The notes: a model not told the origin generated them from the sequence alone. DNA of 64,000 nt from Rhodothermales bacterium (GCA_963740755.1 CAVUFJ010000011.1:80822-144821); one strand, 5' to 3'. Shown: positions 18,802 through 59,745, counted from the first letter of the stretch. Numbers and translations: made by a program.

Positions 18802-19993
18802 ATGGCCTACCTCTTCACCTCGGAGTCGGTCTCCGAAGGGCACCCCGACAAGGTCGCCGACCAGATCTCCGACGCCATCCTCGACGCGCTGCTCACGCAG
18901 GACCCGAAAAGCCGCGTGGCGGTCGAGACGCTCGTGACGACGGGCCTCGTGGTGCTCTCGGGCGAGGTGACGACGAATGCCTATGTGGACGTGCAGGAGA
19001 TCGCCCGCGGCGTGATCCGGGAGATCGGCTACACCGACCCCCGCCTCCGCTTCGATGCCGATTCGTGCGGCGTCATCTCGGCCATCCACGGCCAGAGCCC
19101 GGACATCGCGCAGGGCGTCGATGAAGGCGCCGGCCTGCACGAGGAGCAGGGCGCCGGCGACCAGGGCATGATGTTCGGCTACGCGACGACCGAGACGGCC
19201 GAGTTCATGCCGCTCGCGCTCAGCCTCTCGCACAAGCTCGTGCACGAGCTCGCCAAGATCCGCAAGTGGGAGCCGCACCTGATGCCCTACCTCCGCCCGG
19301 ACGCCAAGAGCCAGGTGACGATCGAGTACGACGACGACCGCCGCACCGTGCGCCGCGTCCACACCGTCGTGCTCTCGACGCAGCACGACGACGAGGTGAC
19401 GCTCGAGAAGATCAAGAAGGACGTGATCAAGCACCTGCTCCCGCGCGTGCTCCCGCAGAGCCTCGTGGACGACAACCTGATCCTCCACGTCAACCCGACG
19501 GGCAAGTTCGTCATCGGCGGCCCCCACGGCGACACCGGCCTGACGGGCCGCAAGATCATCGTGGACACCTACGGCGGCAAGGGCGCCCACGGCGGCGGCG
19601 CGTTCTCGGGCAAGGACCCGAGCAAGGTGGACCGCAGCGCCGCCTACGCGGCCCGCTACGTGGCGAAGAACCTCGTGGCGGCGGGCCTCGGCCGAGGAAG
19701 CGCTCGTGCAGGTGGCCTACGCCATCGGCGTGGCCGAGCCGGTGAGCGTGAACGTGAACACCTACGGCACCGGCACGCTCTCCGACGAGGCGCTCGGCGA
19801 ACTCATCCGCGCCGAGTTCGACCTGCGCCCGGCGGCCATCACGCGCACGCTCGACCTGCTCAAGCCGCGCTACCGCCACACGGCCGCCTACGGGCACTTC
19901 GGGCGCGACGGCGAGACGTTCACCTGGGAGCAGCTCGACCGCGTGGAGAGCCTCAAGGACCGCGCCGCCAAGTACAAGGAGCAGGCCGCGTAA
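18802..19993 (+). CDS. metK: S-adenosylmethionine synthetase with one frameshift
   Basis: [24 protein letters not shown]..., [41 protein letters not shown] single extra G at about 19691 joins frames 18802-19690 and 19706-19993. Confidence 0.9.
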
Positions 19994-20011
19994 CCCGCGC
20001 ACCTTCCGGCT

Positions 20012-20050
20012 TCGGGCCGCCTCGCTTTGTGCGGGGCGGCCTTTTTTGTG
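20012..20050 (+). terminator. Rho-independent terminator after metK
   Basis: GGGCCGCCTCGCTTTGTGCGGGGCGGCC followed by TTTTTTGTG. Confidence 0.6.
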
Positions 20051-20179
20051 GGTCTGGGCGCGGCGCGCGGCCCAAACAGGCGAAAGCGGGGGCGTGCGGG
20101 CGCCCGGCATCGCGCGCCGTGGTTGATGGCGGCGGGCGCAAGGGCTAAGTTGCCGCCGTCCATTTGCGCCGTCTTTCCG

Positions 20180-22735
20180 ATGCCCCTTCGCCCAGTTCGT
20201 TGCCCCGCTGCTTGCCGGGGCCCTCGTGCTCGCTGCCTGCACGTCGAGCCGTTCCACCCCGGCTTCCCCGCCGTCCGCCACGCCGCCCAGTGCGGCCGCC
20301 ACAGCTCCCCCGGCCGCAGGGGCCACGCCCCCGGCGGCCGGCACGCCCGCGCGACCGGCAGCGGCTCCGACGGGGCCGAAGCCGTTTGCGGAGACCGTGC
20401 GCGGGATGCGCGCCGACAGCGGACTCGTGACGGTGTACCGCAACGACACCAAGCTGCTCTTCGCGGTCGCCGACACGCTCTTCGGGCGCGACTTGCTCTG
20501 GCTCACGCGCGTGTCCGCCGTGCCCGCCGGGCTGGGCGGCTTCGTGACGCCGGGCGTCAACCTGAACGAGAGCGTCGTGCGCTTCGAGCGGCGCGGCGAC
20601 CGCGTGCTGCTGCGCGAAGTTCAGCTACGACCAGGTGGCCGCCGATTCCCTGCCCGATTGCGCGCGCCGTGGCGCGGGGCCAACTTCGCGCCCGTGCTCG
20701 CCTCGCTGCCCGTGCAGAGCTACGCGCCCGATTCGAGCGTGGTGCTCGACGTGACGGCGCTCTTCGAGAAGGACACCCCCGCCTTTGCCGGGCTCACGGC
20801 CACGCAGCGCACCACCTACCAGGTGCGGCGCCTAGACGAGTCGCGCAGCTTCATCAACACGGCGCGGAGCTACCCGCTCAACGTGGAGGTCAACCACACG
20901 CTCACCTACGACGCCGGGCGCCCGCCGTCCGACGTCGATGCCGGCACGATCTCGATGGAGCTGCAGCAGTCGCTCGTGCTGCTGCCGAAAACGCCCATGC
21001 GGCCCGCGCATCGCGGACGAGCGCGTGGGCTACTTCACCGTCGATCAGATCAACTTCGGCGCCGCCGATCAGCAGGCCGTGCGGCAGCAGTTCATCCGCC
21101 GGTGGCGCCTGGAGCCCAAAGACCCGGCGGCCTACGCCCGGCGCGAACTGACAGAGCCCGTCAAGCCCATCGTCTACTACCTCGACCCGGCCACGCCCGC
21201 CGAGTGGCGCTCGTGCGTGATGCAGGGCGTGAACGACTGGCAGAAGCCGTTCGAAACCGCGGGCTTCAAAAACGCCATCGAGGCGCGCTTGCCCCCCACC
21301 GACGACCCCGACTGGAGCGCCGACGACGTGCGCTACTCGACCGTCCGCTGGGCGGCGAGCCTGACGCGCAACGCGATGGGCCCGAGCGTGAGCGACCCGC
21401 GCACGGGCGAGATCATCGAGTCCGACATCGTGTGGTACCACAACCACCTTCGCTCCTACCGCAACCGGATCATGCTGGAGACGGGCGCCGCCAACCCGCT
21501 CGCCCGCACCCTCCCCATCGACACCGGGGCTCATGTGCGAGGCGATGCGGCAGGTGATTGCCCACGAGATCGGCCACGCGCTCGGCTTTCCGCACAACAT
21601 GGGCGCGAGCAGCGCCTACCCGGTCGACTCGCTCCGTAACCCGTCGTTCGTGCGGCGGATGGGCGTGGCGCCGTCCGTGATGGACTATGCGCGCCAGAAC
21701 TACGTGGCCCAGCCCGGCGACGGCCTTGTGGGCACCGACTTTCTGCGCCAGATCGGGCCGTACGACCACTACGCCGTCAACTGGGGCTACCGCGTGATTC
21801 CCGTCTGCCGCGACGCCCGAGGCCGAGAAGCCGATCCTCCACCACTGGATCCTCGCGCACGCGGGCGACCCGGTGTACCGCTTCAACGGCGGCGGGGGCT
21901 TCGACCCGAGCGCGCAGACCGAGGACATCGGCAGCGACCCGGTGGCCGCGAGCACGCTCGGCATCGCCAACCTGAAGCGCGTGGCGCCGCAGCCTGCTCG
22001 CGTGGACGACGAAGCCGGGCGAGGACTACACGAACCTGACCGAGCTCTACGGCGAACTCGTGGGCCAGTGGCAGCGCTACGTCGGGCACGTGCTCACGCT
22101 CGTGGGCGGGCGTCGTAGAGACGCACAAGACGTCCGATGAAACCGGCAACGTGTACACGCCCGTGCCGGCCGCGCAGCAGCGGGCGGCGATGGCGTTCGC
22201 TGGCGCGCGAGGTGTTCGAGGCGCCCACGTGGCTCACCGACGATGCCGTGCTGGGCCGCATCGAAGCCACCGGCGGGCTCGACCGGATCACCGGCGCGCA
22301 GGCGAACGTGGTGAACAGCCTGCTCTCCACCGCCCGCCTCCAGCGCCTCGCCGACGCCGCGGTCCGTGATGGATTTGCGTATTCCCCCACGAGCTTCTTC
22401 GACGACCTCCGCGCGGGCGTCTGGGGCCGCGGCGCGCCCGACGTGTACCGCCGCGCCGCTCCAGCGCGCCTACGTGGAGCGCCTGACCACGCTCCTCAAC
22501 CCGCCGGACGCGCCCGCCACGGCCTCCCCGATCCCCGGCGCCCCGAGCCCCGCCGCGCAGCAGGCCGCCGTGCTCCGCTCCGACATCCAGCCGCTCGTGC
22601 GCGCCGAACTCGCAGACGCTCCAGCGACGAGCGCCCGCGCCGCCGCCCGCGCCACAAGCGACCGGCTCGTGCGCGCCCACTACGAAGACCTCGCCACAGC
22701 GCGCCGCCCGCGCCCTCGACCCGAACGCGTGATTG
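20180..22735 (+). CDS. Large secreted zinc metalloprotease lipoprotein (metzincin-type HEIGHALGFPH motif), heavily frameshifted; its 3' end abuts the low-GC island
   Basis: Reconstructed start MPFAQFVAPLLAGALVLAAC after removing one extra C at 20184. HEIGHALGFPHNMGASSAYPVDSL...VMDYARQNY. Homology runs through at least seven frames up to about 22735. Confidence 0.7.
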
Positions 22736-24568
22736 CTTCATCACGTCATCTTGTATCGCCTAACCATCTAGAAACATGGATGTAGTAACACAGAGCCTGC
22801 TTGGCGAATTTACTTCAAGCCAGAAGCTTGAAAATCTGGCCCAGTCTGATCAATTTGAGGCGTTTGTAAACTACATCGTTATATCAGACCTATACCCTGA
22901 AGAATTTGATTACAGTGTTGTGTCTACAGGCACGGGTGAGTTTGGTATTGATGGCATAGCAATAATCGTCAATGATTCAATCATAGATATGGCGAGGATC
23001 AGATGGATGATATTATATCGAATGTTCCTGTCATTCAGGCCCATTTTGTGTTTGTTCAGTCGAAAACAAGTGCATCTTTCGATGTTGGAGACATGTCTAA
23101 GTTTTTGTAGGCAGTAGTTGATTTTTTCAAGCAGGAAATATCTTTTAGCCAAACGACAAGATATTGGAGCTCCAGAGGGTCAAGAACAAGCTTTTTAAGA
23201 GCGCATCTAAGTTTGCCAGGGGGCTTCCTAAGATATCTCTATACTACGCCACTACTGGCACATGGAATGATGACCAAAATCTTTGTGCGACTAGAGATTT
23301 ATTTGTCGGTCAACTAAACAACCTTCACATATTTGAGTCGGTTAAGTTTTATCCGCTTGGGGCTAGCAAGGTGCAAAAGCTGTATTTTCAGACAAAGAAT
23401 GCATTCAGGGTGTCGATAAACTTTGCCCAGAATCTTTCACTGCCTGAAATACCTGGGGTCAGAGAGTCGTACATCGGACTCTGCCTGTATCTGAATACAT
23501 GAAAATGATTACAGATGAAGCAGGGAACGTAAGAAGAAGGCTATTTTTTGACAATATTAGGGATTTTCAGGGCGAAACCTCTGTAAATAAATCAATTAAG
23601 GAAACGCTTGTTTCACCAAACAGTATTGAGTTTCCACTGAGGAATAACGGTATTACCATAGTAGCACGCAAGCTCCAGAGGGTTGGGTCTCAGTTTACGT
23701 TAGAGGATTATCAAGTTGTAAATGGTTGTCAAACCAGTCATGTCATAGCGTCCACGGGAAAGAAAGATGATCATGATACCATGATACCCATAAAGATTAT
23801 ATCTACAGAAGACGAGGAGATCACAAGACAGGTGATAATTGCTTCTAACCAACAAAATAAGGTAGATCAGGAGAGTTTTTGGACCCTCGCTCCCATTCAT
23901 AAGTCAATTGAGGTATATTTTGATTCAAAGCCTGGCGACCACAAGCTGCATTACGAGAGGAGGCCAGGTCAATTCAATACATTGAACGGCATAGAAAAGG
24001 TTAGAATAGTTACCAAGGACTCACTATTGAAGGTTTATGCATCTGTATTTCTCGAGCAACCTAACCAGGTTGGTAGGTATTATAAAGACCTAACACCGCT
24101 TATTGGTAAAGAAATATTCTCCCCAGATCACGAGGTGAATTCGTATTATACAGCTGCTATACATAGCTTATAGACTGGAGTTTATGTTTCGCAATAAAAA
24201 AATGGATCCTGAATGGAAGCCTTTTAGATTCCAAATTATGATGGCAACTCGCCTCTTGATAGAGAAGGATTTGAAATTAGAACCTAAAAAAAGAGGTCAA
24301 AGCAATATTGTGCCGCAATAGATGCCGTAATGGTTGGACCCAGAGAAAGCACAAGCCGTTTTTGAGCGAGCAACAAGCTTGATCTCAAAGGCTATATCTC
24401 TGCTTAAGGATCAGGATGCTAAGCTTGACCGACGGACCGCTAAAATGCGAGACATGAGAGACAAACTCAGAGACGTTATATCTAAACAAGACACGCGATG
24501 ATTTTGTGTGTATCAACTAAGTGAATTCTTCACATTTATGCCAATATTGTCCCTCAGACGACGCTAGA
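22732..24568. mobile_element. Horizontally acquired low-GC island (~1.84 kb, roughly 35-40% GC by eye) carrying an abortive-infection gene; no integrase or transposase
   Basis: Abrupt composition change at both ends. Flanked by the metzincin 3' end on the left and a displaced DUF445 3' fragment on the right. Confidence 0.7.
22776..24173 (+). CDS. AIPR-family abortive infection (phage resistance) protein in three frameshifted pieces; it may continue in two further small ORFs to about 24490
   Basis: N-terminus FEAFVNYIVISDLYPEEFDY...GEFGIDGIAIIVND. AIPR-core motifs FFDNIRDFQG...NNGITIVA and QVVNGCQTSHVI. Pieces 22776-23117, 23164-23502 and 23499-24173. Confidence 0.6.
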
Positions 24569-24578
24569 ATCCGAGCGT

Positions 24579-24745
24579 TCACCCGAGCCAGGTGGTCAGC
24601 AGATAGAGGAGCGCGCCGACGAGACCGCCCACCAGCGTGCCGTTGATGCGGATCCACTGCGGACCTTGCCGACGGCGACTTCGATGCGGTCAGGCGACGG
24701 CCTCGGCGGGCCAGTGCTCGATCGTGTCGCGCATGCCCCTGCACG
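24579..24745 (-). pseudogene. Displaced, diverged fragment of a DUF445 gene 3' end (~85% identical to 25438-25610); it keeps the native stop codon
   Basis: Minus-strand translation ...[38 protein letters not shown] against ...[42 protein letters not shown] in the intact gene. Confidence 0.55.
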
Positions 24746-24821
24746 TAGCTCCAGTGTGTCCGGAACTCTCTCCGCCCCGAATTAACGTCGATGAGGCCTC
24801 CGTTTTACACATCCCGGATCG

Positions 24822-25035
24822 ATGCCTGCCGTTTTCGCGTATCGCCCAAATTTCAGGTCGTCATCCCTCGCCGCGTGCGGGAGGCGCTCCGCATCGAGCC
24901 TGGTCAGCAGGTCGAGGTCATCGCGCACGGCGACCGCATCGAACTCATCCCGGTGCGCCCCATCCAGCAGATGCGCGGTTTTCTGACGGGGCTAGACACC
25001 CTGAATTGGGCGGGAGCAAGACCAGGGCGCTATGA
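24822..25035 (+). CDS. vapB: AbrB/SpoVT-type antitoxin (VapB-like), frameshifted near its start
   Basis: VSPKFQVVIPRRVREALRIEPGQQVEVIAHGDRIELIPV swapped-hairpin motif. ATGA overlap with the next gene at 25032. Confidence 0.6.
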
Positions 25036-25460
25036 ACGTCGTCGATTCCTCCGGATGGCTCGAATACTTCGCCGGGAGCGCCCGGGCGGACTTTTTCGCC
25101 CCTGCCATTGAGGACACGGCAGCGCTCGTTGTGCCGGTGGATCACGCTTTATGAGGTGTACAAGCGCGTACGCCAGCAGCGCAGTGAGATTGAAGACGTT
25201 TACAGGCGGTCGGGGAAATGCAGCAAGGCCGTCTTGTCGATCTCGATAGGAGCCTCGCCCTACGGGCCGCCCAACTGAGTCTCGCGCATCGCCTCCCCAT
25301 GGCGGACAGCCTGATCTTGGCGACGGCGCGGGCCCTGGAGGCAGAACTCTGGACCCAAAACGCTCACTTCGAGGGACTCGCCGGGGACGATATCAGCGTA
25401 AAGCGTGAGCCGCAAGCTCGCGCGGACGCCGTGCAGCCGAGCCAGGTGGTGAGCAGGTAG
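25032..25460 (+). CDS. vapC: PIN-domain toxin (VapC-like) with two frameshifts; its 3' end overlaps the DUF445 gene convergently
   Basis: [35 protein letters not shown]...YEVYKRV...[49 protein letters not shown]. Confidence 0.65.
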
Positions 25461-26637
25461 AGGAGGGCGCCGACGAGGCCGCCCACGAGGGTGCCGTTGA
25501 TGCGGATCCACTGGAGGTCTTTGCCGACGGCCACCTCGATGCGGTCCGAGACCGGCTTCAGCGGGCCAGCGCTCGATGGTGTCGCGGATGAGGTCGGGGA
25601 TGCGCTGCCCGTGCTCTTGGATGGCCCACGCGGCGGCGGCGGCCACCTTCTCGTTGACGGCGTGCTGGAACGCCTCGTCTTCGAGCATCGAGCGGCCGAA
25701 CTCCACGCCGCGCGCTTCGAGAAAGCCGAAGATGGCCGAGTCCTCGTCGTGCAGGTCGCGCACGAGAAAGCCCTTGAAGTCGCCCCAGCGCTCGACGGCG
25801 AAGTCGCGCAGGGCCGGGTTTTCGAGCACGCGGTCGCGGAGGGCGTCCACCTTGGCCTGCATGGCCGGGTCGTGGTCGAGGCGCTCCAGGAATTCCTGCA
25901 CGCGCTCGTGGATGCGCACGCGCAGCGGGTTCTCGCGGTCGGAGAGCATCGCCTGGATCGTGGTGTCGATCTTGCCCATCACGGCGTCGGTGACGAGGTC
26001 GGCGGCGAAGACGGCGATGAGGCTCGGCATCTGCGCGCGCACGACGTCGTAGATGGCGTCGCGGTTGGCGGCGGCCACGCTCGCGGCGCCCTGGAGCACC
26101 TCGTCGAGCAGGTCTTCGTGCTGCCCGTCGCGCGCGAGGCCGAGGAGCAGGTCGGAGAGCTTGGGCGCCAGGGCGACCTCCCGGAGGCGCGGGATCACCT
26201 CGCGGTCCGAGAACTCGCGGATGCGCCCGTCCGAGAGGCCGTCCACCGCCCCTTCGATCATCCCCACGATGCGCGTGCGCAGGCTTCGCACGTGCCCCGG
26301 CGTTTCGAGCCAGCGCCCGGCGATCTCGGCGAAGTTGATCCGCTCGATGCGCGGCAGCACGTTCTCGGGCGTCAGAAACTGCCCGCCCGACGAAGTTGCC
26401 GAGCGCGTTGCCGAGGCGGGCCTTGCGCTCGGGGATGATGGCCGTGTGGGGGATCGGCACGCCGAGCGGGTGCCGGAAGAGCGCCGTGACGGCGAACCAG
26501 TCGGCGAGGGCGCCCACCATGGAGGCCTCGAAGAAGGCGGCGAAGAGGCCCGTCCAGAAGTTGCGGGGCAGGGCAAAGTGGCACACGAGAAAGCCCACCG
26601 CCGCCGCCACGAGAAACCCGAGCGCGATGCGCTTCAT
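25438..26637 (-). CDS. DUF445-family membrane protein (YjiN-like) with at least two frameshifts; the stop codon is missing, so the ORF reads about 23 codons into antisense vapC
   Basis: [24 protein letters not shown]...[20 protein letters not shown]...[10 protein letters not shown]. One extra G at 26393. ...[28 protein letters not shown] with no stop after it. Confidence 0.6.
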
Positions 26638-26980
26638 CCGGCGGAGCGCCGCGCGCTTGTCCTGCTCGTCGCGCAGCTGGGGGAGCGGCGGCTGCCATGC
26701 CGGTCCGTTGCCGACAGCGCGGCACGGGCTCCGGCGCGGGGGGCGGGGCCGTGCGCGCGTGGGCGTACGTCGCGGGCGGCAGGGCCAGCGGGGCGACAGG
26801 CAGGGCGCCGGCCGGGGCGTCGGGCAGCGCTGTGGGGGTGAGCGGGGGCTCCATAGGGGTCGGGACGGCCTTGCAGGATTCGCGGCGCGGCAGGCGTTTG
26901 TTTCGGGCAGACGGAAGGGGTACATCCGTGGACCCCGGCGCCGAGGCCTGTTGTAGCAGCCCGGTCTGCCTTGCCCTGCC

Positions 26981-27844: not shown

Positions 27845-27982
27845 GCCGCCCCCGAATGCCTGGCTGAACGGGCTCGGTTTCCGTCCCCTTCGCCTGCGAA
27901 GGGGGCAGACGCGCCAGCGTCGGGGGATGCCACAAGCAGGGCCGCGCCGGGTTACTTTGGGGCCTGATCCTTCGCGTCCCCC

Positions 27983-30438
27983 ATGCGCCGTTTGCTTCTG
28001 CTTGCGCTCCTCGCGCTCCTCGCGCCCCTCGCCTCTCCGGCCCTGCGCGCCCAGCCCCGTCCGAGCGACGGCCGGCCGGCGCTCACCGTCGCCCAGATCA
28101 TGCAGTTGGGCGAAGAGCTGCGGCGCGGCCTGCCCACGCCCCTCGGCTGGGACGAGCGCGGCGACTACTTCTACTTCAACTGGAATCCCGCCGGAGACCG
28201 CGCCGCGAACGCCGGGGGCAGTGCCTTTGCCGACTCGCTCTACCGCGTCGCCCGCACCGGGAGCACGCCCGAGAAGGCGCCGGCGCTCCTCCAGCGGCGC
28301 GGCGTCGAGACGTTCGACGGGTGGCATCCGGGCGAGTTCGTCTACACGCGCGACCGGCAGCGCAAGGTGGATGTGCGGGGCGGCGACGTGGTGCTCATCG
28401 ACCGGCAGACGGGCGCCGAAACGTTTCTGACCCGCACGAGCGCCGCCGAGCGCGGGGCCCGCTTTACGCCGGACGATGCGGCAGTAGTCTACCGGCAGGG
28501 CGACAACCTCTTCCGCCACAGCCTCACGAGCGGCGCCGTCGTGCAGCTCACCGACTTCCGCAGCGGCAACGCCCCGGCCCCGCCGCGTCCGGGCGAGGCG
28601 CAGGCCTACCTCGACCGGCAGCAGCAGCAGCTCTTCGGCGTCCTCCGCGACCGCCGGGCCCGCGCCACCGCCCGCGACTCCTCGGCCGCCTGGCAGCGCC
28701 GCGCGGACGCCGCGCCGAAGACGATCTACCTCGGCGGCAAGACCCTCGGCGCCCTCGCGCTCGACCCGTCCGGGCGCTATGTCTCCTACACGCTGACGCC
28801 CGCCGCCTCCGGCCCCACGAGCAGCACGCTCGTGCCGGCGTGGGTCACCGAGAGCGGGGCGGTGGAAAACCTGACCTCCCGCTCGAAGGTGGGCGTGCAG
28901 CCGTTTGCCGCGCCCGAACTCTACGTGCTCGACATCGCCGCCGACACCGCGCGCCGCGTAGACCTTTTCGCGCTTCCCGGCACGTCCGACAAGCCGGCCT
29001 TTCGCCGCGCCCTCGGCGACACCGCCCGCGCCCGCCGCCCGCTCTTTGCCTTCGGGCCGTCGTGGCGCCCGGACGGGCGCTACGCCGTCGTGGAGGTGCG
29101 CAGCTACGACAACAAGACGCGCTGGCTCGCCCGCCTCGACCCCGCCACCGCGCGCCTGACGCCGCTCGACGTGCAGCAGGACGACGCGTGGATTCAGGGC
29201 CCCGGCATCGGCTTTGGCTCAACCGGCTGGCTCTCCGACGGCCAGACGTTCTGGTTTCAATCCGAGAAGACGGGCTACTCGCACCTCTACACGGTAGACG
29301 TGGAGACGGGCGCCGTGCGGCCGCTCACGAGCGGCAACTTCGAGGTGTCGAATCCGCGCCTCTCGCGCGACGGGCAGCAGTGGCGCTTCAACTCGTCCGA
29401 GCTGACGCCTGCCGAGACGCACCTCTACACGATGCCGGTCGGCGGCGGCGCCCGCACGCGCGTCACCACGCTCGCCGGGCAGAGCAGCGCCTTCGACGAT
29501 CCGCGCGAGGAGATGCTCGGCTTCGCGTTCGGACAGGCCAACCAGCCCACCGAGATCTACCTCGCCCGGCGGGGCGGGGCGCCCGTGCGCGTCACGAGCA
29601 GCACGAGCGCGGCGTTCCGGCGTACCCGTGGCGCGACGCCGAGATCATCCAGGTGCCCGCCTCCGATGGCCTGTCGGTGCCCGCGCGCATCTACCGGCCC
29701 CCGGCAGGCGTGACCCCCAACGGCGCGGCGGTGCTGTTCGTGCACGGCGCGGGGTACCTCCAGAACGTCCACCGTGGCTGGAGCACGTACTACCGCGAGT
29801 ACATGTTTCACAACCTGCTCGCCGACCGGGGCTACACCGTGCTCGACCTCGACTACCGCGCCTCGTCCGGCTACGGGCGCGACTGGCGCACGGCCGTCTA
29901 CCGCTTTATGGGCGGGCGCGACCTGCAGGACTACGTGGACGCGAGCCGCTACGTGAACGCCGAACTGGGCATCGACCCGAACCGCGTGTTCATCTACGGC
30001 GGCTCCTATGGGGGCTTCATCACGCTCATGGCGCTCTTCACCGCCCCCGAGCACTTCGGCGGCGGCGCGGCCCTCCGCTCGGTGACGGACTGGGCGCACT
30101 ACAACCACGGCTACACGGCCAACATCCTCAACATGCCCGCGCAGGACACGCTCGCGTTTCGGCAGTCGTCGCCCATCTACCACGCCGAGGGCTACAAGGG
30201 CAACCCGCTGCTCATCGCCCACGGCCTCGTGGACACGAACGTGGAGGTGCAGGACGTCATCCGCCTCTCGCAGCGTTTGATCGAGCTCGGCAAGACGGGC
30301 TGGGAGATGGCGCTCTACCCGGTCGAGGACCACGGCTTCGTGGAGCAAAGCTCGTGGACGCGACGAGTACCGCCGCATCCTCAAGACGATTGAGGAGAGC
30401 GTTGGCCCCGAGCGGCGGTTGCGCGTGTGGCCGGAGTA
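27983..30438 (+). CDS. S9-family serine peptidase (dipeptidyl aminopeptidase IV / prolyl oligopeptidase-like) with two frameshifts
   Basis: Signal peptide, beta-propeller region, catalytic domain [10 protein letters not shown] (Ser), ...DTNVEV (Asp), ...EDHGF (His). Frame breaks at about 29620 and 30358. Confidence 0.8.
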
Positions 30439-31138: not shown

Positions 31139-31166
31139 CACCAGAGGAGGCCGGGGCGTGGGCGCG

Positions 31167-31373
31167 TAGGGGCAAAGCATCCGCTGTGCGGCCACCGGCC
31201 TCCGCAGCGCTCCGCTCATGGCAACGGTGCCGCGCAATGCCCCGCCCGGATGCTTCGCCCGCACCGCCCGGCATGGTGGGCAAAGCATCGGGGTGGGGCC
31301 ACGGGCAGAGGCGTTGCCGCAGGTGGGGGCGGGGCCGCGGGCAGGGGCTTCACAGCGGATGCTTTGCCCCTAC
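31167..31373. repeat. GC-rich nested-palindrome element, copy 1. The outer inverted repeat is GTAGGGGCAAAGCATCCGCTGTG paired with CACAGCGGATGCTTTGCCCCTAC.
   Basis: Direct reading. The related copy is at 52140-52350. Confidence 0.75.
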
Positions 31374-31392
31374 GGATGGCGTCTTGGGGCGC

Positions 31393-38198: not shown

Positions 38199-38435
38199 AT
38201 GCACGTCGTTTCGCTCGATGAAGCCGGTGAGCACCTTGACGGCCTGATCGACGAGGCACTCCAAGGAAACGTGGTCATCATCAGACGCGATGATGGCTTC
38301 GTGGTACAGCTCGTGCCGGTAATCGAGCGCGATGCTACAGAGGATCTGATACCAGATCCGGCCGATGAGTACGGGAAGGTCCCCTCGATCATTGATGATG
38401 GATCATGGCCAGAGAGCACATCTGGGCGTCTCTGA
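38199..38435 (+). CDS. Orphan Phd/YefM-like antitoxin; its 3' third is encoded by repeat R3 and no toxin gene follows
   Basis: MHVVSLDEAGEHLDGLIDEALQGNVVIIRRDDGFVVQLVPV resembles Phd/YefM N-termini. Downstream ...DLIPDPADEYGKVPSIIDDGSW is the translated repeat. Confidence 0.35.
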   Translation: MHVVSLDEAGEHLDGLIDEALQGNVVIIRRDDGFVVQLVPVIERDATEDLIPDPADEYGKVPSIIDDGSWPESTSGRL

Positions 38436-38500
38436 CCATGATCAATGATCCGTGATCAACCCGGTGATCCCTGACCAAGCTACCGGAGTTGGTATGACAA
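38343..38500. repeat. R3 copy of the GGTCAGAGA / GATC-rich repeat family, inverse orientation
   Basis: gatctgataccagatccgg...gatcatggccagagagcacatctgggcgtctctgaccatgatcaatgatccgtgatcaacccggtgatcc...accggagttggtatga. Confidence 0.7.
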
Positions 38501-51996: not shown

Positions 51997-52139
51997 CAGG
52001 CGCAGGTAGAGGCCCCTCCCGAACCCGGTGGTAGCACACCGTTTCCGGGTGACAGGCCGGTATCCCTCGCGTCTACACACGCCGGTCACACGTCCGTTGC
52101 ACCCGCCCCCGTTATCGCCCGCCCCCATCGTCGCGCGTA

Positions 52140-52350
52140 GGGGCGAAGCCTCCGCTGTGCGGCGCCTGCCCGTCGTGCGGCTCCCTGCGCCGCAACGGCA
52201 CGCGCGTTGTCCCGGTGCGAGGCTTCGCCCAACTCCTGCCACCGGGGGCGATGCGGGCGAAGCCTCGCGCCAGGACCATGGGCAGGGCCGTTGCCGCGTC
52301 GGGCGGCGGGGCCGCGCGCGGAGGCGGCACAGCGGAGGCTTCGCCCCTAC
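52140..52350. repeat. GC-rich nested-palindrome element, copy 2. Outer inverted repeat GTAGGGGCGAAGCCTCCGCTGTG paired with CACAGCGGAGGCTTCGCCCCTAC. Inner pairs cgaggcttcgccc / gggcgaagcctcg and gcaacggc / gccgttgc.
   Basis: Direct reading. Same architecture as 31167-31373, with compensated base differences. Confidence 0.75.
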
Positions 52351-52400
52351 GCGGTCGGCGGTACGGCGGTGGTATGTTGGGGCGGATGCCATCCCTGCCC

Positions 52401-57048: not shown

Positions 57049-57441
57049 GTGAAACTCCGCATCAAAGGCGACACGCTCCGCCTCCGCCTCACCCAGCCCG
57101 AAGTGGCCCTGTTCGCCGCCGAAGGCTGCGTGGAAGACGCCCTGCACGTGGCCCCCGGCGCCGCGCTGCGCTACCGCCTCTACGCCGACCCGGAGGCGAC
57201 CGCGCTCGGGGCCGTCTGGAACGGCAGTCTGCTCACCGTCGTCGTGCCGGAAGGCTGGGCGCGGCCGTGGGCGGAGGGCAACGAGGTGGGCGTCGAGGGC
57301 GCGCAGGCCGCCGGCGAGGGGCACACGCTCACCCTGCTCGTCGAGAAAGACTTTGCCTGCCTCCACGAGGCGCGCGACGAGCCCGGCGCCTTCCCCAACC
57401 CCTTCTCCGACGTGCCGGGCTACGTGGATGCGGATGACTGA
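57049..57441 (+). CDS. Hypothetical protein; its last ~17 codons (AFPNPFSDVPGYVDADD) recur in the downstream duplicated fragment
   Basis: Intact 130-aa ORF in an operon position. No recognised domain. Confidence 0.4.
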   Translation: MKLRIKGDTLRLRLTQPEVALFAAEGCVEDALHVAPGAALRYRLYADPEATALGAVWNGSLLTVVVPEGWARPWAEGNEVGVEGAQAAGEGHTLTLLVEKDFACLHEARDEPGAFPNPFSDVPGYVDADD

Positions 57442-57487
57442 CGCGCAGCGCGGCGGTGGGGCGGGGAGGGCAGACGCGGCGGGGAGC

Positions 57488-58072
57488 ATGGTCACGGCGC
57501 GCCGTGCCCCGACCCACATCCCGCCGGGCGACGTCACCGGGCTGATCCTTGCGGGTGGGCACAGCCGCCGCTTCGGGCGCGACAAGGCCCTCGCGGAGGT
57601 GGACGGCGTGCCGCTCGTGGCGCGCGTGTACGACGCCCTGGCTCCCCACTGCGCGGAGGTACTGATCGCCACCGGGGCCACGCCGCGCGCCTACCCCGTG
57701 CCCGCACGCGTCGTGCTGGATGCGGTGCCGGAGGCGGGGCCGCTCGCCGGACTCCTCGCCGGGCTGGCGGCAGCGCGCACGCCGTGGCTGCTCGTGGCCG
57801 CCTGCGACCTCGCGGGCCTCACGCCGGCCGCGCTGGCCTCGCTGCTGCGCGGGGCTGCGCCGGACGTGGACGCGGTGGTGGCCGTGGATGCAGATGGGCG
57901 GCGCCAGCCCGTGTGCGCGCTGTACCGCGCCGAGGCCGTGGCGCCGGTGGCCGCGATGCACCTCGCCGCAGGCCGCCGGGCGCTCCACGCGCTGCTCGAT
58001 GCGCTCACGGTCTGCGAGGTCGCACTCGATCCTGTGGCCCTGCGCAACGCCAACACCTCCGAAGACCTTTGA
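57488..58072 (+). CDS. mobA: Molybdenum cofactor guanylyltransferase
   Basis: LILAGGHSRRFGRDKALAEVDGVPLV...ACDLAGLTPAAL.... Confidence 0.8.
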   Translation: MVTARRAPTHIPPGDVTGLILAGGHSRRFGRDKALAEVDGVPLVARVYDALAPHCAEVLIATGATPRAYPVPARVVLDAVPEAGPLAGLLAGLAAARTPWLLVAACDLAGLTPAALASLLRGAAPDVDAVVAVDADGRRQPVCALYRAEAVAPVAAMHLAAGRRALHALLDALTVCEVALDPVALRNANTSEDL

Positions 58073-58107: not shown

Positions 58108-58212
58108 TGGATCATGCATCATCGCCAGAAGACCGCTCCGGGCATCTCTGACCATGATCGGGGATCAACCCGATGATCTCCCATGATGCGACCGGAGTTG
58201 GGATGACCCCTA
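58108..58212. repeat. R4 copy of the GGTCAGAGA / GATC-rich repeat family, inverse orientation
   Basis: gatcatgcatcatcgccagaagaccgctccgggcatctctgaccatgatcggggatcaacccgatgatctcccatgatgcgaccggagttgggatga. Confidence 0.7.
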
Positions 58213-59373: not shown

Positions 59374-59454
59374 AGGAGCCGGGGCGTATCCAAAGATAAC
59401 TGGCGCTACCCACGAAAAAGCCGCCCCGGTGCAGAACCGCGTCGCGCGACGAGC

Positions 59455-59745
59455 CGGACGCCTTCCCCACCCCCTTTGCCAACGTGCCCGGCTACGTGGA
59501 TGCCGACGACGGTAGGGGCGGGGTTAACCACGCCCTACCGCATCCTGGTGCTGCCGGGCGACTTCGGGCACGACAAGGCCCTCGCACGCGTGGCCGGGGT
59601 GTCGCGCGTGGCGCGCCTCTACGACGCCCCCGCGCCCCACTGCGCCGAGGTGCTCCTCGCCACGGGCGCCGCGTGCCTCCCCGGTGGCCGCGCGTGTCGT
59701 GCTCGATAACGCCAACACCCCGGCCGATCTGTTCGGAAGCGCTTT
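59455..59745 (+). pseudogene. Decayed partial duplicate of the 57390-58072 segment (3' end of the hypothetical gene plus an internally deleted mobA)
   Basis: AFPTPFANVPGYVDADD then ...LVLPGDFGHDKALARVAGVSRVARLYDAPAPHCAEVLLATGA...NANTPADL, parallel to mobA's GGHSRRFGRDKALAEVDGVPLVARVYDALAPHCAEVLIATGA...NANTSEDL. Confidence 0.55.

Follow-up and report, generated by a model that had tools for sequence, protein, structure and literature searches.

The gene of a DUF445 (PF04286) membrane protein, encoded at 25433..26853 on the minus strand of the window (the whole 64-kb stretch of Rhodothermales bacterium DNA that was analyzed), has two 3' ends, one attached to the gene body and the other displaced to the far side of a vapBC toxin-antitoxin gene pair. 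This locus raises the question of where the second end comes from and by what route the cargo genes came to lie between and beyond the two ends. A preliminary description of the window had taken the arrangement, with the gene body and one 3' end followed by cargo and then by a second 3' end, for the signature of site-specific or homology-guided integration into the 3' end of a gene, of the kind seen with tRNA- or tmRNA-targeting islands. The layout itself proved to be as described.

A DUF445 3' end present twice

Alignment of the two stretches bears out a direct repeat, which spans positions 24576-24735 and 25430-25590. Identity between the copies amounts to 87% (90% and 81% in the ungapped blocks, 86.9% across the 153-154 coding positions compared; blastn E-value of 3e-46), there is one indel, and no third copy is found across the 64-kb window. 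They are spaced 854-855 bp apart, start to start, and enclose vapBC alone. On the minus strand, the repeat contains approximately the 52 last codons of DUF445, which include a conserved motif and the C-terminal helix; the similarity is that of the conserved C-terminus of the DUF445 family and not that of a generic low-complexity hydrophobic segment.

The gene-attached copy (25430..25590, minus strand) comprises the last 52 DUF445 codons and 3 nt past the stop position and carries one additional G (GCCGGTC versus GCCGTC in all others). The displaced copy (24576..24735, minus strand) has two compensating indels and 3 to 4 amino acid changes. As had been noted, it keeps its TGA stop codon and abuts an AT-rich island: it terminates with GGG TGA (stop at 24579-24581) and directly adjoins the 40% GC island that carries an AIPR-family gene. 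Homology between the copies runs out within 3 nt of the stop codon, which is also where the orthologues cease aligning. The other edge is of a different nature: homology to a conserved gene is present on one flank, and at 24735/25590 there is an abrupt switch to unrelated sequence upstream of vapB. The non-homologous junction, from the 5' edge of the displaced fragment to the region upstream of vapB (24736..24821; 59% GC), is a putative joint of illegitimate recombination.

The nearest DUF445 relatives found were at loci L002 (protein P0001, 87% protein identity) and L003 (P0002, 85%), followed by a representative from GTDB (L001, 68%); no parental (pre-insertion) allele and no relative closer than these 85 to 87% was found. 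Of the 20 substitutions that distinguish the two copies of the repeat, 16 fall at third codon positions (P = 2.5e-5 versus the expectation of 1/3). With the L002 and L003 orthologues used to polarize the private changes, the attached copy has 5 of them, all at third positions, and the displaced copy has 13, mostly G/C-conserving, 10 of which are at third positions (P = 0.002-0.012); none is common to both copies. In view of the third-position bias, the divergence must therefore have arisen mostly within functional genes of different lineages. Because no private change is shared, the copies are separated by a split of about the same depth as the one from L002 and L003. Identity of the attached copy to L002 and to L003 is 91.6% in both cases, the same value as between L002 and L003, and this equidistance continues along the whole DUF445 gene body, whereas the displaced copy is the outlier, being 85.6-86.9% identical to L002 and L003. 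Sliding identity of DUF445 and of the adjacent metalloprotease gene versus L002 and L003 revealed no recombination breakpoint.

The attached copy had been described as a surrogate 3' end. Its distances match those of the gene body, and it looks like the gene's own end. Judging from the same comparisons, the two copies are different alleles rather than a fresh target duplication, and the proposal of a foreign, inter-lineage origin finds support in the excess of third-position differences and in the lack of any shared private change. Alternatively, the displaced copy may be somewhat decayed as well, as its two compensating indels and 3 to 4 amino acid changes would suggest. The extreme form of this view is an ancient in situ duplication at the time of vapBC insertion, after which the attached copy stayed under selection and the displaced copy decayed neutrally. 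The indels and amino acid changes of the displaced copy, its longer branch (13 versus 5 private changes), and the disruption of the cargo genes are all in line with such a history. However, changes on the displaced branch are biased toward third positions and mostly conserve G/C, the core metalloprotease is equally dense in indels (11 in 2.3 kb), so that the indels look like assembly noise, and a 160-bp fragment without any use would need to have persisted through species-level divergence. An ancient duplication is accordingly unlikely; the excess of third-position changes that the displaced branch shows would also fit divergence under selection combined with some decay at a later stage.

Frameshifts, the missing stop codon, and the gene overlap

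Frameshifts were counted by frameshift-aware alignment of homologous proteins to the DNA, uniformly for core and cargo genes. There are 3 in DUF445 (1.3 kb aligned), 11 in the core metalloprotease (2.33 kb), 2 in an S9 peptidase (2.47 kb), and 6, together with a CAG to TAG nonsense codon, in the AIPR gene (1.71 kb); metK and fabF also switch frame, and examples are spread window-wide (20400-22732, 25433-26853, 27968-30437, and 18802-20148). vapBC has about 6 frameshifts in 0.6 kb (3 aligned and 3 more deduced in the unaligned C-terminal parts), versus 1 to 5 per kb in core genes; these may stem from sequencing error or from real decay. The indel load of the assembly is roughly 1 to 5 per kb, and the record is probably a noisy long-read assembly. 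The notion that the cargo is more frame-disrupted than the core, as would be expected from decay, was ruled out by the 11 frameshifts of the core metalloprotease. Since indels are common to core and cargo, assembly noise is favored over cargo-specific decay. Lost stops, extended open reading frames (ORFs), and overlaps, all of them single-base features, are untrustworthy in this record because its core genes have 1 to 5 frameshifts per kb.

This caution bears directly on the DUF445 gene, which had been described as intact and as having lost its stop codon. In this record it has three frameshifts, near 26718, 26387, and 25552, and the record's own gene call is a frameshifted ORF (P0010, 366 aa). 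In the orthologues (P0001 to P0008 and L001 to L003), a C-terminus of the pattern ...T[T/A]W[L/I]G is followed by a TGA or TAA stop directly after the final Gly; P0001 (87% identity) and P0002 (85%) both end with ...TAWLG and then stop. This position of the native stop, immediately after the final Gly, was confirmed in every orthologue examined. The corresponding position in the window, 25433-25435, reads TGC, so that the attached copy has GGC TGC at 25433-25438 and stays open for 23 further codons, up to a TGA at 25364-25366. Two things set it apart from the orthologues: one changed base within the stop codon and a synonymous change of the preceding Gly codon from GGG to GGC. The 23-codon read-through (25364..25432, minus strand) is absent from all orthologues compared and presupposes that the TGC at 25433-25435 is correct. 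Thus, the TGC and the open frame behind it are present as claimed, and the loss of the stop codon hangs on one base in an error-rich record. That base is a difference in its own right and goes back to either a mutation or a sequencing error.

The other partner in the proposed overlap is vapC. The vapB antitoxin gene (MazE/AbrB-type, PF04014, E = 7e-12; 24822..25035, plus strand) encodes a product that starts with MPAV... and has about three frameshifts; its TGA stop (25033-25035) overlaps the ATG of vapC, forming an ATGA overlap at 25032-25035. vapC (25032..25408, plus strand) encodes a PIN-domain toxin (PF01850, E = 1.5e-15). The antitoxin gene directly upstream of, and overlapping, the PIN toxin gene is the type II VapBC arrangement, and the homologues are 69 aa (VapB; L004) and 123 to 130 aa (VapC) long. 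The apparent vapC ORF, with frameshifts near 25141, 25197, and about 25385, extends to a TAG at 25458-25460. VapC homologues end with ...FEGLxGV(R/Q)Y..K, and an alternative frame of the window reads ...RYQRKA followed by TGA at 25406-25408, which is where the native stop most likely lies. The C-terminal extension attributed to vapC is an artefact of a one-base frameshift near 25385 and not a result of insertion. With the native vapC stop at 25406-25408, the convergent overlap, put at ~75 nt in the preliminary description, shrinks to at most about 45 nt, and that only if TGC, not TGA, is correct. The missing stop and the overlap do not serve as a signature of integration: one is a single-base difference and the other a demonstrable frameshift.

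A record of this quality also invites the suspicion that the repeat itself is an assembly artefact, in which case sequences of two co-occurring populations would have been fused into a chimeric contig by a noisy metagenome assembly, probably of long reads. The pervasive frameshifts and the frameshifted gene call P0010 would fit this explanation, as would the junction pattern, for which a search of the JGI metagenomes produced no match. However, a mis-join via 160 homologous bp would yield a hybrid gene, whereas the window shows a duplication whose junction at 24736 is non-homologous, and the 13% divergence of the copies respects codon positions, which marks it as biological. Such an artefact is very unlikely; the repeat and its layout are real and biological.

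The variable interval and its cargo

The L002 locus shares both convergent flanking genes with the window, DUF445 and a DUF5118/DUF5117 metalloprotease, and nucleotide homology between the two loci ends exactly at the two stop codons. In the window, the metalloprotease, a convergent core gene, occupies 20400..22732 on the plus strand; its stop (22730-22732) forms the left border of the variable interval, and its product, once the frames are corrected, is 82% identical to that of the L002 orthologue (L002 9023-11343). Precisely at the left edge of the AT-rich island, the metalloprotease stop is overlapped by a hairpin (GCGTGATTGCTTCATCACGT; 22727-22746) with a T-rich tail behind it; apart from this hairpin, a scan for promoters and terminators detected nothing informative.

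Between these two stops, L002 has 7.7 kb of unrelated cargo, versus 2.7 kb in the window. The L002 cargo codes for an FMN reductase, a 549-aa protein of unknown function, YbjQ, an M28 peptidase, and a SnoaL-like protein, as well as for a HEPN/nucleotidyltransferase pair and DUF4238 (L002 6567-7314 and 7765-8835); by virtue of the latter genes, toxin-antitoxin or defense-type cargo recurs at the interval. In more distant relatives, coaBC or other genes are found downstream of DUF445. The segment between the DUF445 and metalloprotease stops is, by this comparison, a variable spot, and the suggestion of its repeated use agrees with the different 7.7-kb cargo that L002 bears between the same stop codons. 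Oliveira et al. (Nat Commun, 2017) reportedly described hot spots in the chromosome, located between conserved core genes, where accessory and defense genes gather. Here, too, two syntenic core genes bracket unrelated cargo (toxin-antitoxin pairs, the Abi-like AIPR, and DUF4238), although the "hot spot" in this case is drawn from a small sample, the two genomes that share the interval.

The cargo of the window is compositionally foreign, with a GC content of 63% in vapBC and 41% in the AIPR gene, as compared to 71-73% in core genes and about 72% in the genome. The AT-rich island (22733..24575, plus strand; 40.6% GC) contains a single AIPR-family gene at 22776-24501, whose nonsense codon is located at 23108-23110. 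The AIPR homologues form a tight family of proteins of about 570 aa that are 65 to 76% identical across Bradyrhizobium, Burkholderia, Chlorobaculum, and Methylobacterium (L085 to L088); their genes are found either beside integrase or DDE remnants or alone among housekeeping genes, which suggests that the AIPR gene is a widely travelling single-gene defense cassette. A search via these homologues for a donor arrangement (metalloprotease, AIPR, DUF445) returned best matches of no more than 76% identity, in unrelated contexts. Likewise, vapBC was not found beside DUF445 elsewhere, and the nearest vapBC (77% protein identity) adjoins ccmB; a parental form of the sequence upstream of vapB was not found either.

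To see how widespread such an arrangement is, 83 further DUF445 loci, all from distant relatives with 50 to 65% identity, were collected by a metagenome scan with the C-terminal 60 aa. None of these 83 loci, 47 of which extend 3 kb or more downstream, has a second DUF445 3' end, and none has vapC or AIPR nearby. Loci L001 to L003 and L090 to L093 have a single DUF445 3' end each, and no relative was found with a duplicated 3' end free of cargo. In this sample, DUF445 ends do not appear to be a recurrent integration target.

These data are hard to reconcile with site-specific integration, in which an element with a surrogate DUF445 3' end and vapBC would have been inserted by a tyrosine or serine recombinase that was later lost or acted in trans. 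The layout could be read as attL, cargo, and attR with a displaced native end, the interval is repeatedly used, and the closest AIPR homologues elsewhere are located beside integrase and DDE remnants. Nevertheless, no recombinase is encoded in the 2.7-kb interval (22733-25432), whose content is limited to AIPR, the DUF445 fragment, and vapBC, and there is no tRNA or tmRNA gene within the window. The att-like core expected at the repeat edges is missing, too: identity extends for 8 nt at the 5' edge and 3 nt past the stop, and the longest block without a mismatch (23 nt) is found in the central part of the repeat. Add to this the single 3' end at all 83 surveyed loci and the phylogenetic likeness of the attached copy to the rest of its gene, and site-specific integration becomes improbable. 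Islands that tyrosine recombinases insert at the 3' ends of tRNA, tmRNA, or protein-coding genes do resemble this locus in that direct repeats of the 3' end flank the cargo and one copy reconstitutes the gene. However, the locus has neither an integrase nor an identical att core, its repeats are 13% diverged along their full length, and the target is not recurrent in the 83 loci. The comparison with tRNA- and tmRNA-type islands drawn in the preliminary description is not upheld.

Probable recombination between related lineages

In the reading that we favor, with a probability of roughly 0.6, related Rhodothermales-like lineages exchanged DNA horizontally and the repeat was left as a scar; the recombination would have been homologous on one side and illegitimate on the opposite side. 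Linear DNA from a relative would have recombined homologously in one of the conserved flanking genes, and its other end would have joined illegitimately, 160 bp inside or beside the DUF445 3' end, to leave two DUF445 3'-end alleles, one on each side of vapBC. In one version of this scenario, the anchor would be in DUF445, with the donor providing the 3' end and vapBC and the native 3' end being pushed downstream. In the other version, the anchor would be in the metalloprotease, with the donor providing the AIPR island and 160 bp of its own DUF445 end, upstream of the resident vapBC. The two versions fit the data equally well.

Whichever the direction, the process that we infer is homology-facilitated illegitimate recombination, i.e., 3'-end displacement. 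It would account for the abrupt non-homologous junction at 24735/24736, for the homology that ends at the stop, where the lineages cease aligning, for the allelic divergence of the copies, and for the absent recombinase and att core. The exchange reading is favored because L002 keeps the same flanks with unrelated cargo, because the GC content of the cargo is foreign, because comEC-like genes are found in the loci of relatives, and because displaced 3' ends have a precedent (PMC5361080). Natural transformation in this lineage is a putative trait.

A similar pair of ends could also result from a Campbell-type single crossover, whereby a circle of ~855 bp, consisting of the DUF445 3' end of a relative and vapBC, would have integrated to give two hybrid repeats. 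Such a circle would match the spacing of the repeats and the fact that they enclose nothing but vapBC, and mosaic repeats are compatible with it as long as the parental alleles are absent. However, there is no evident mechanism for making the circle, a 160-bp match of 87% identity, in which no identical stretch exceeds 23 nt, is poorly suited to RecA, and no switch point is visible among the differences between the copies, all of which makes a single crossover quite unlikely. Most improbable is the idea that vapBC moves as a minimal cassette of ~855 bp that has no integrase and brings along its own version of the host 3' end, inserts by homology into that gene end, and removes the host stop, thereby generating the convergent overlap. 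If true, it would represent an unrecognized mobility route for toxin-antitoxin modules, and nothing that was found requires such a reading.

The exchange reading has parallels in systems that are already known. At T6SS effector-immunity and Rhs loci, incoming modules leave displaced 3' ends, and homology-facilitated illegitimate recombination is the process invoked to explain them (PMC5361080); for Rhs, 3'-end displacement is credited there to Jackson et al. 2009 (PMC2935791). At those loci, as in the window, a module is joined onto the conserved 5' portion of a gene, whose former 3' end becomes a downstream orphan remnant, at a repeatedly used locus and without an integrase. The differences are that the displaced piece is here a conserved, homologous 3' end (87% identity) and not a polymorphic toxin tip, and that the cargo consists of vapBC and an AIPR gene. 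Homology-facilitated illegitimate recombination as such is reported for transformable bacteria by de Vries & Wackernagel 2002 (PMC122324) and Prudhomme et al. 2002 (PMC122325), and also for E. coli conjugation (PMC3240628); its experimental basis comes from Acinetobacter, Streptococcus, and Pseudomonas, according to the references within PMC5361080 and PMC3240628. It shares with the present locus one homologous anchor, one non-homologous joint, and foreign DNA trapped beside a conserved gene. However, it is known from experiments, whereas here it is deduced from the end product alone.

If the exchange reading holds, this locus is a further instance of an already known type of recombination scar and offers a clear, dated-by-divergence case of small defense or toxin-antitoxin cargo swapped at a convergent core-gene junction, where a cargo swap between related lineages leaves a gene-end remnant.

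The window contains several other repeats at a distance from DUF445. A GATC-rich palindromic element of roughly 100 to 150 nt is present in three copies (2619-2758, 38351-38497, and 58108-58178), which are 75 to 85% identical to each other and occur in both orientations; it may be a MITE- or REP-like repeat. Another repeat, of ~210 nt, is found at 31162-31374 and 52133-52351, about 21 kb apart, and includes an internal inverted repeat (GCGTAGGGGCAAAGCATCCGCTGTG ... CACAGCGGATGCTTTGCCCCTACG). Finally, segments 57366-57682 and 59438-59673, about 2 kb apart, are 81 to 85% identical and are probably parts of paralogous neighboring genes.
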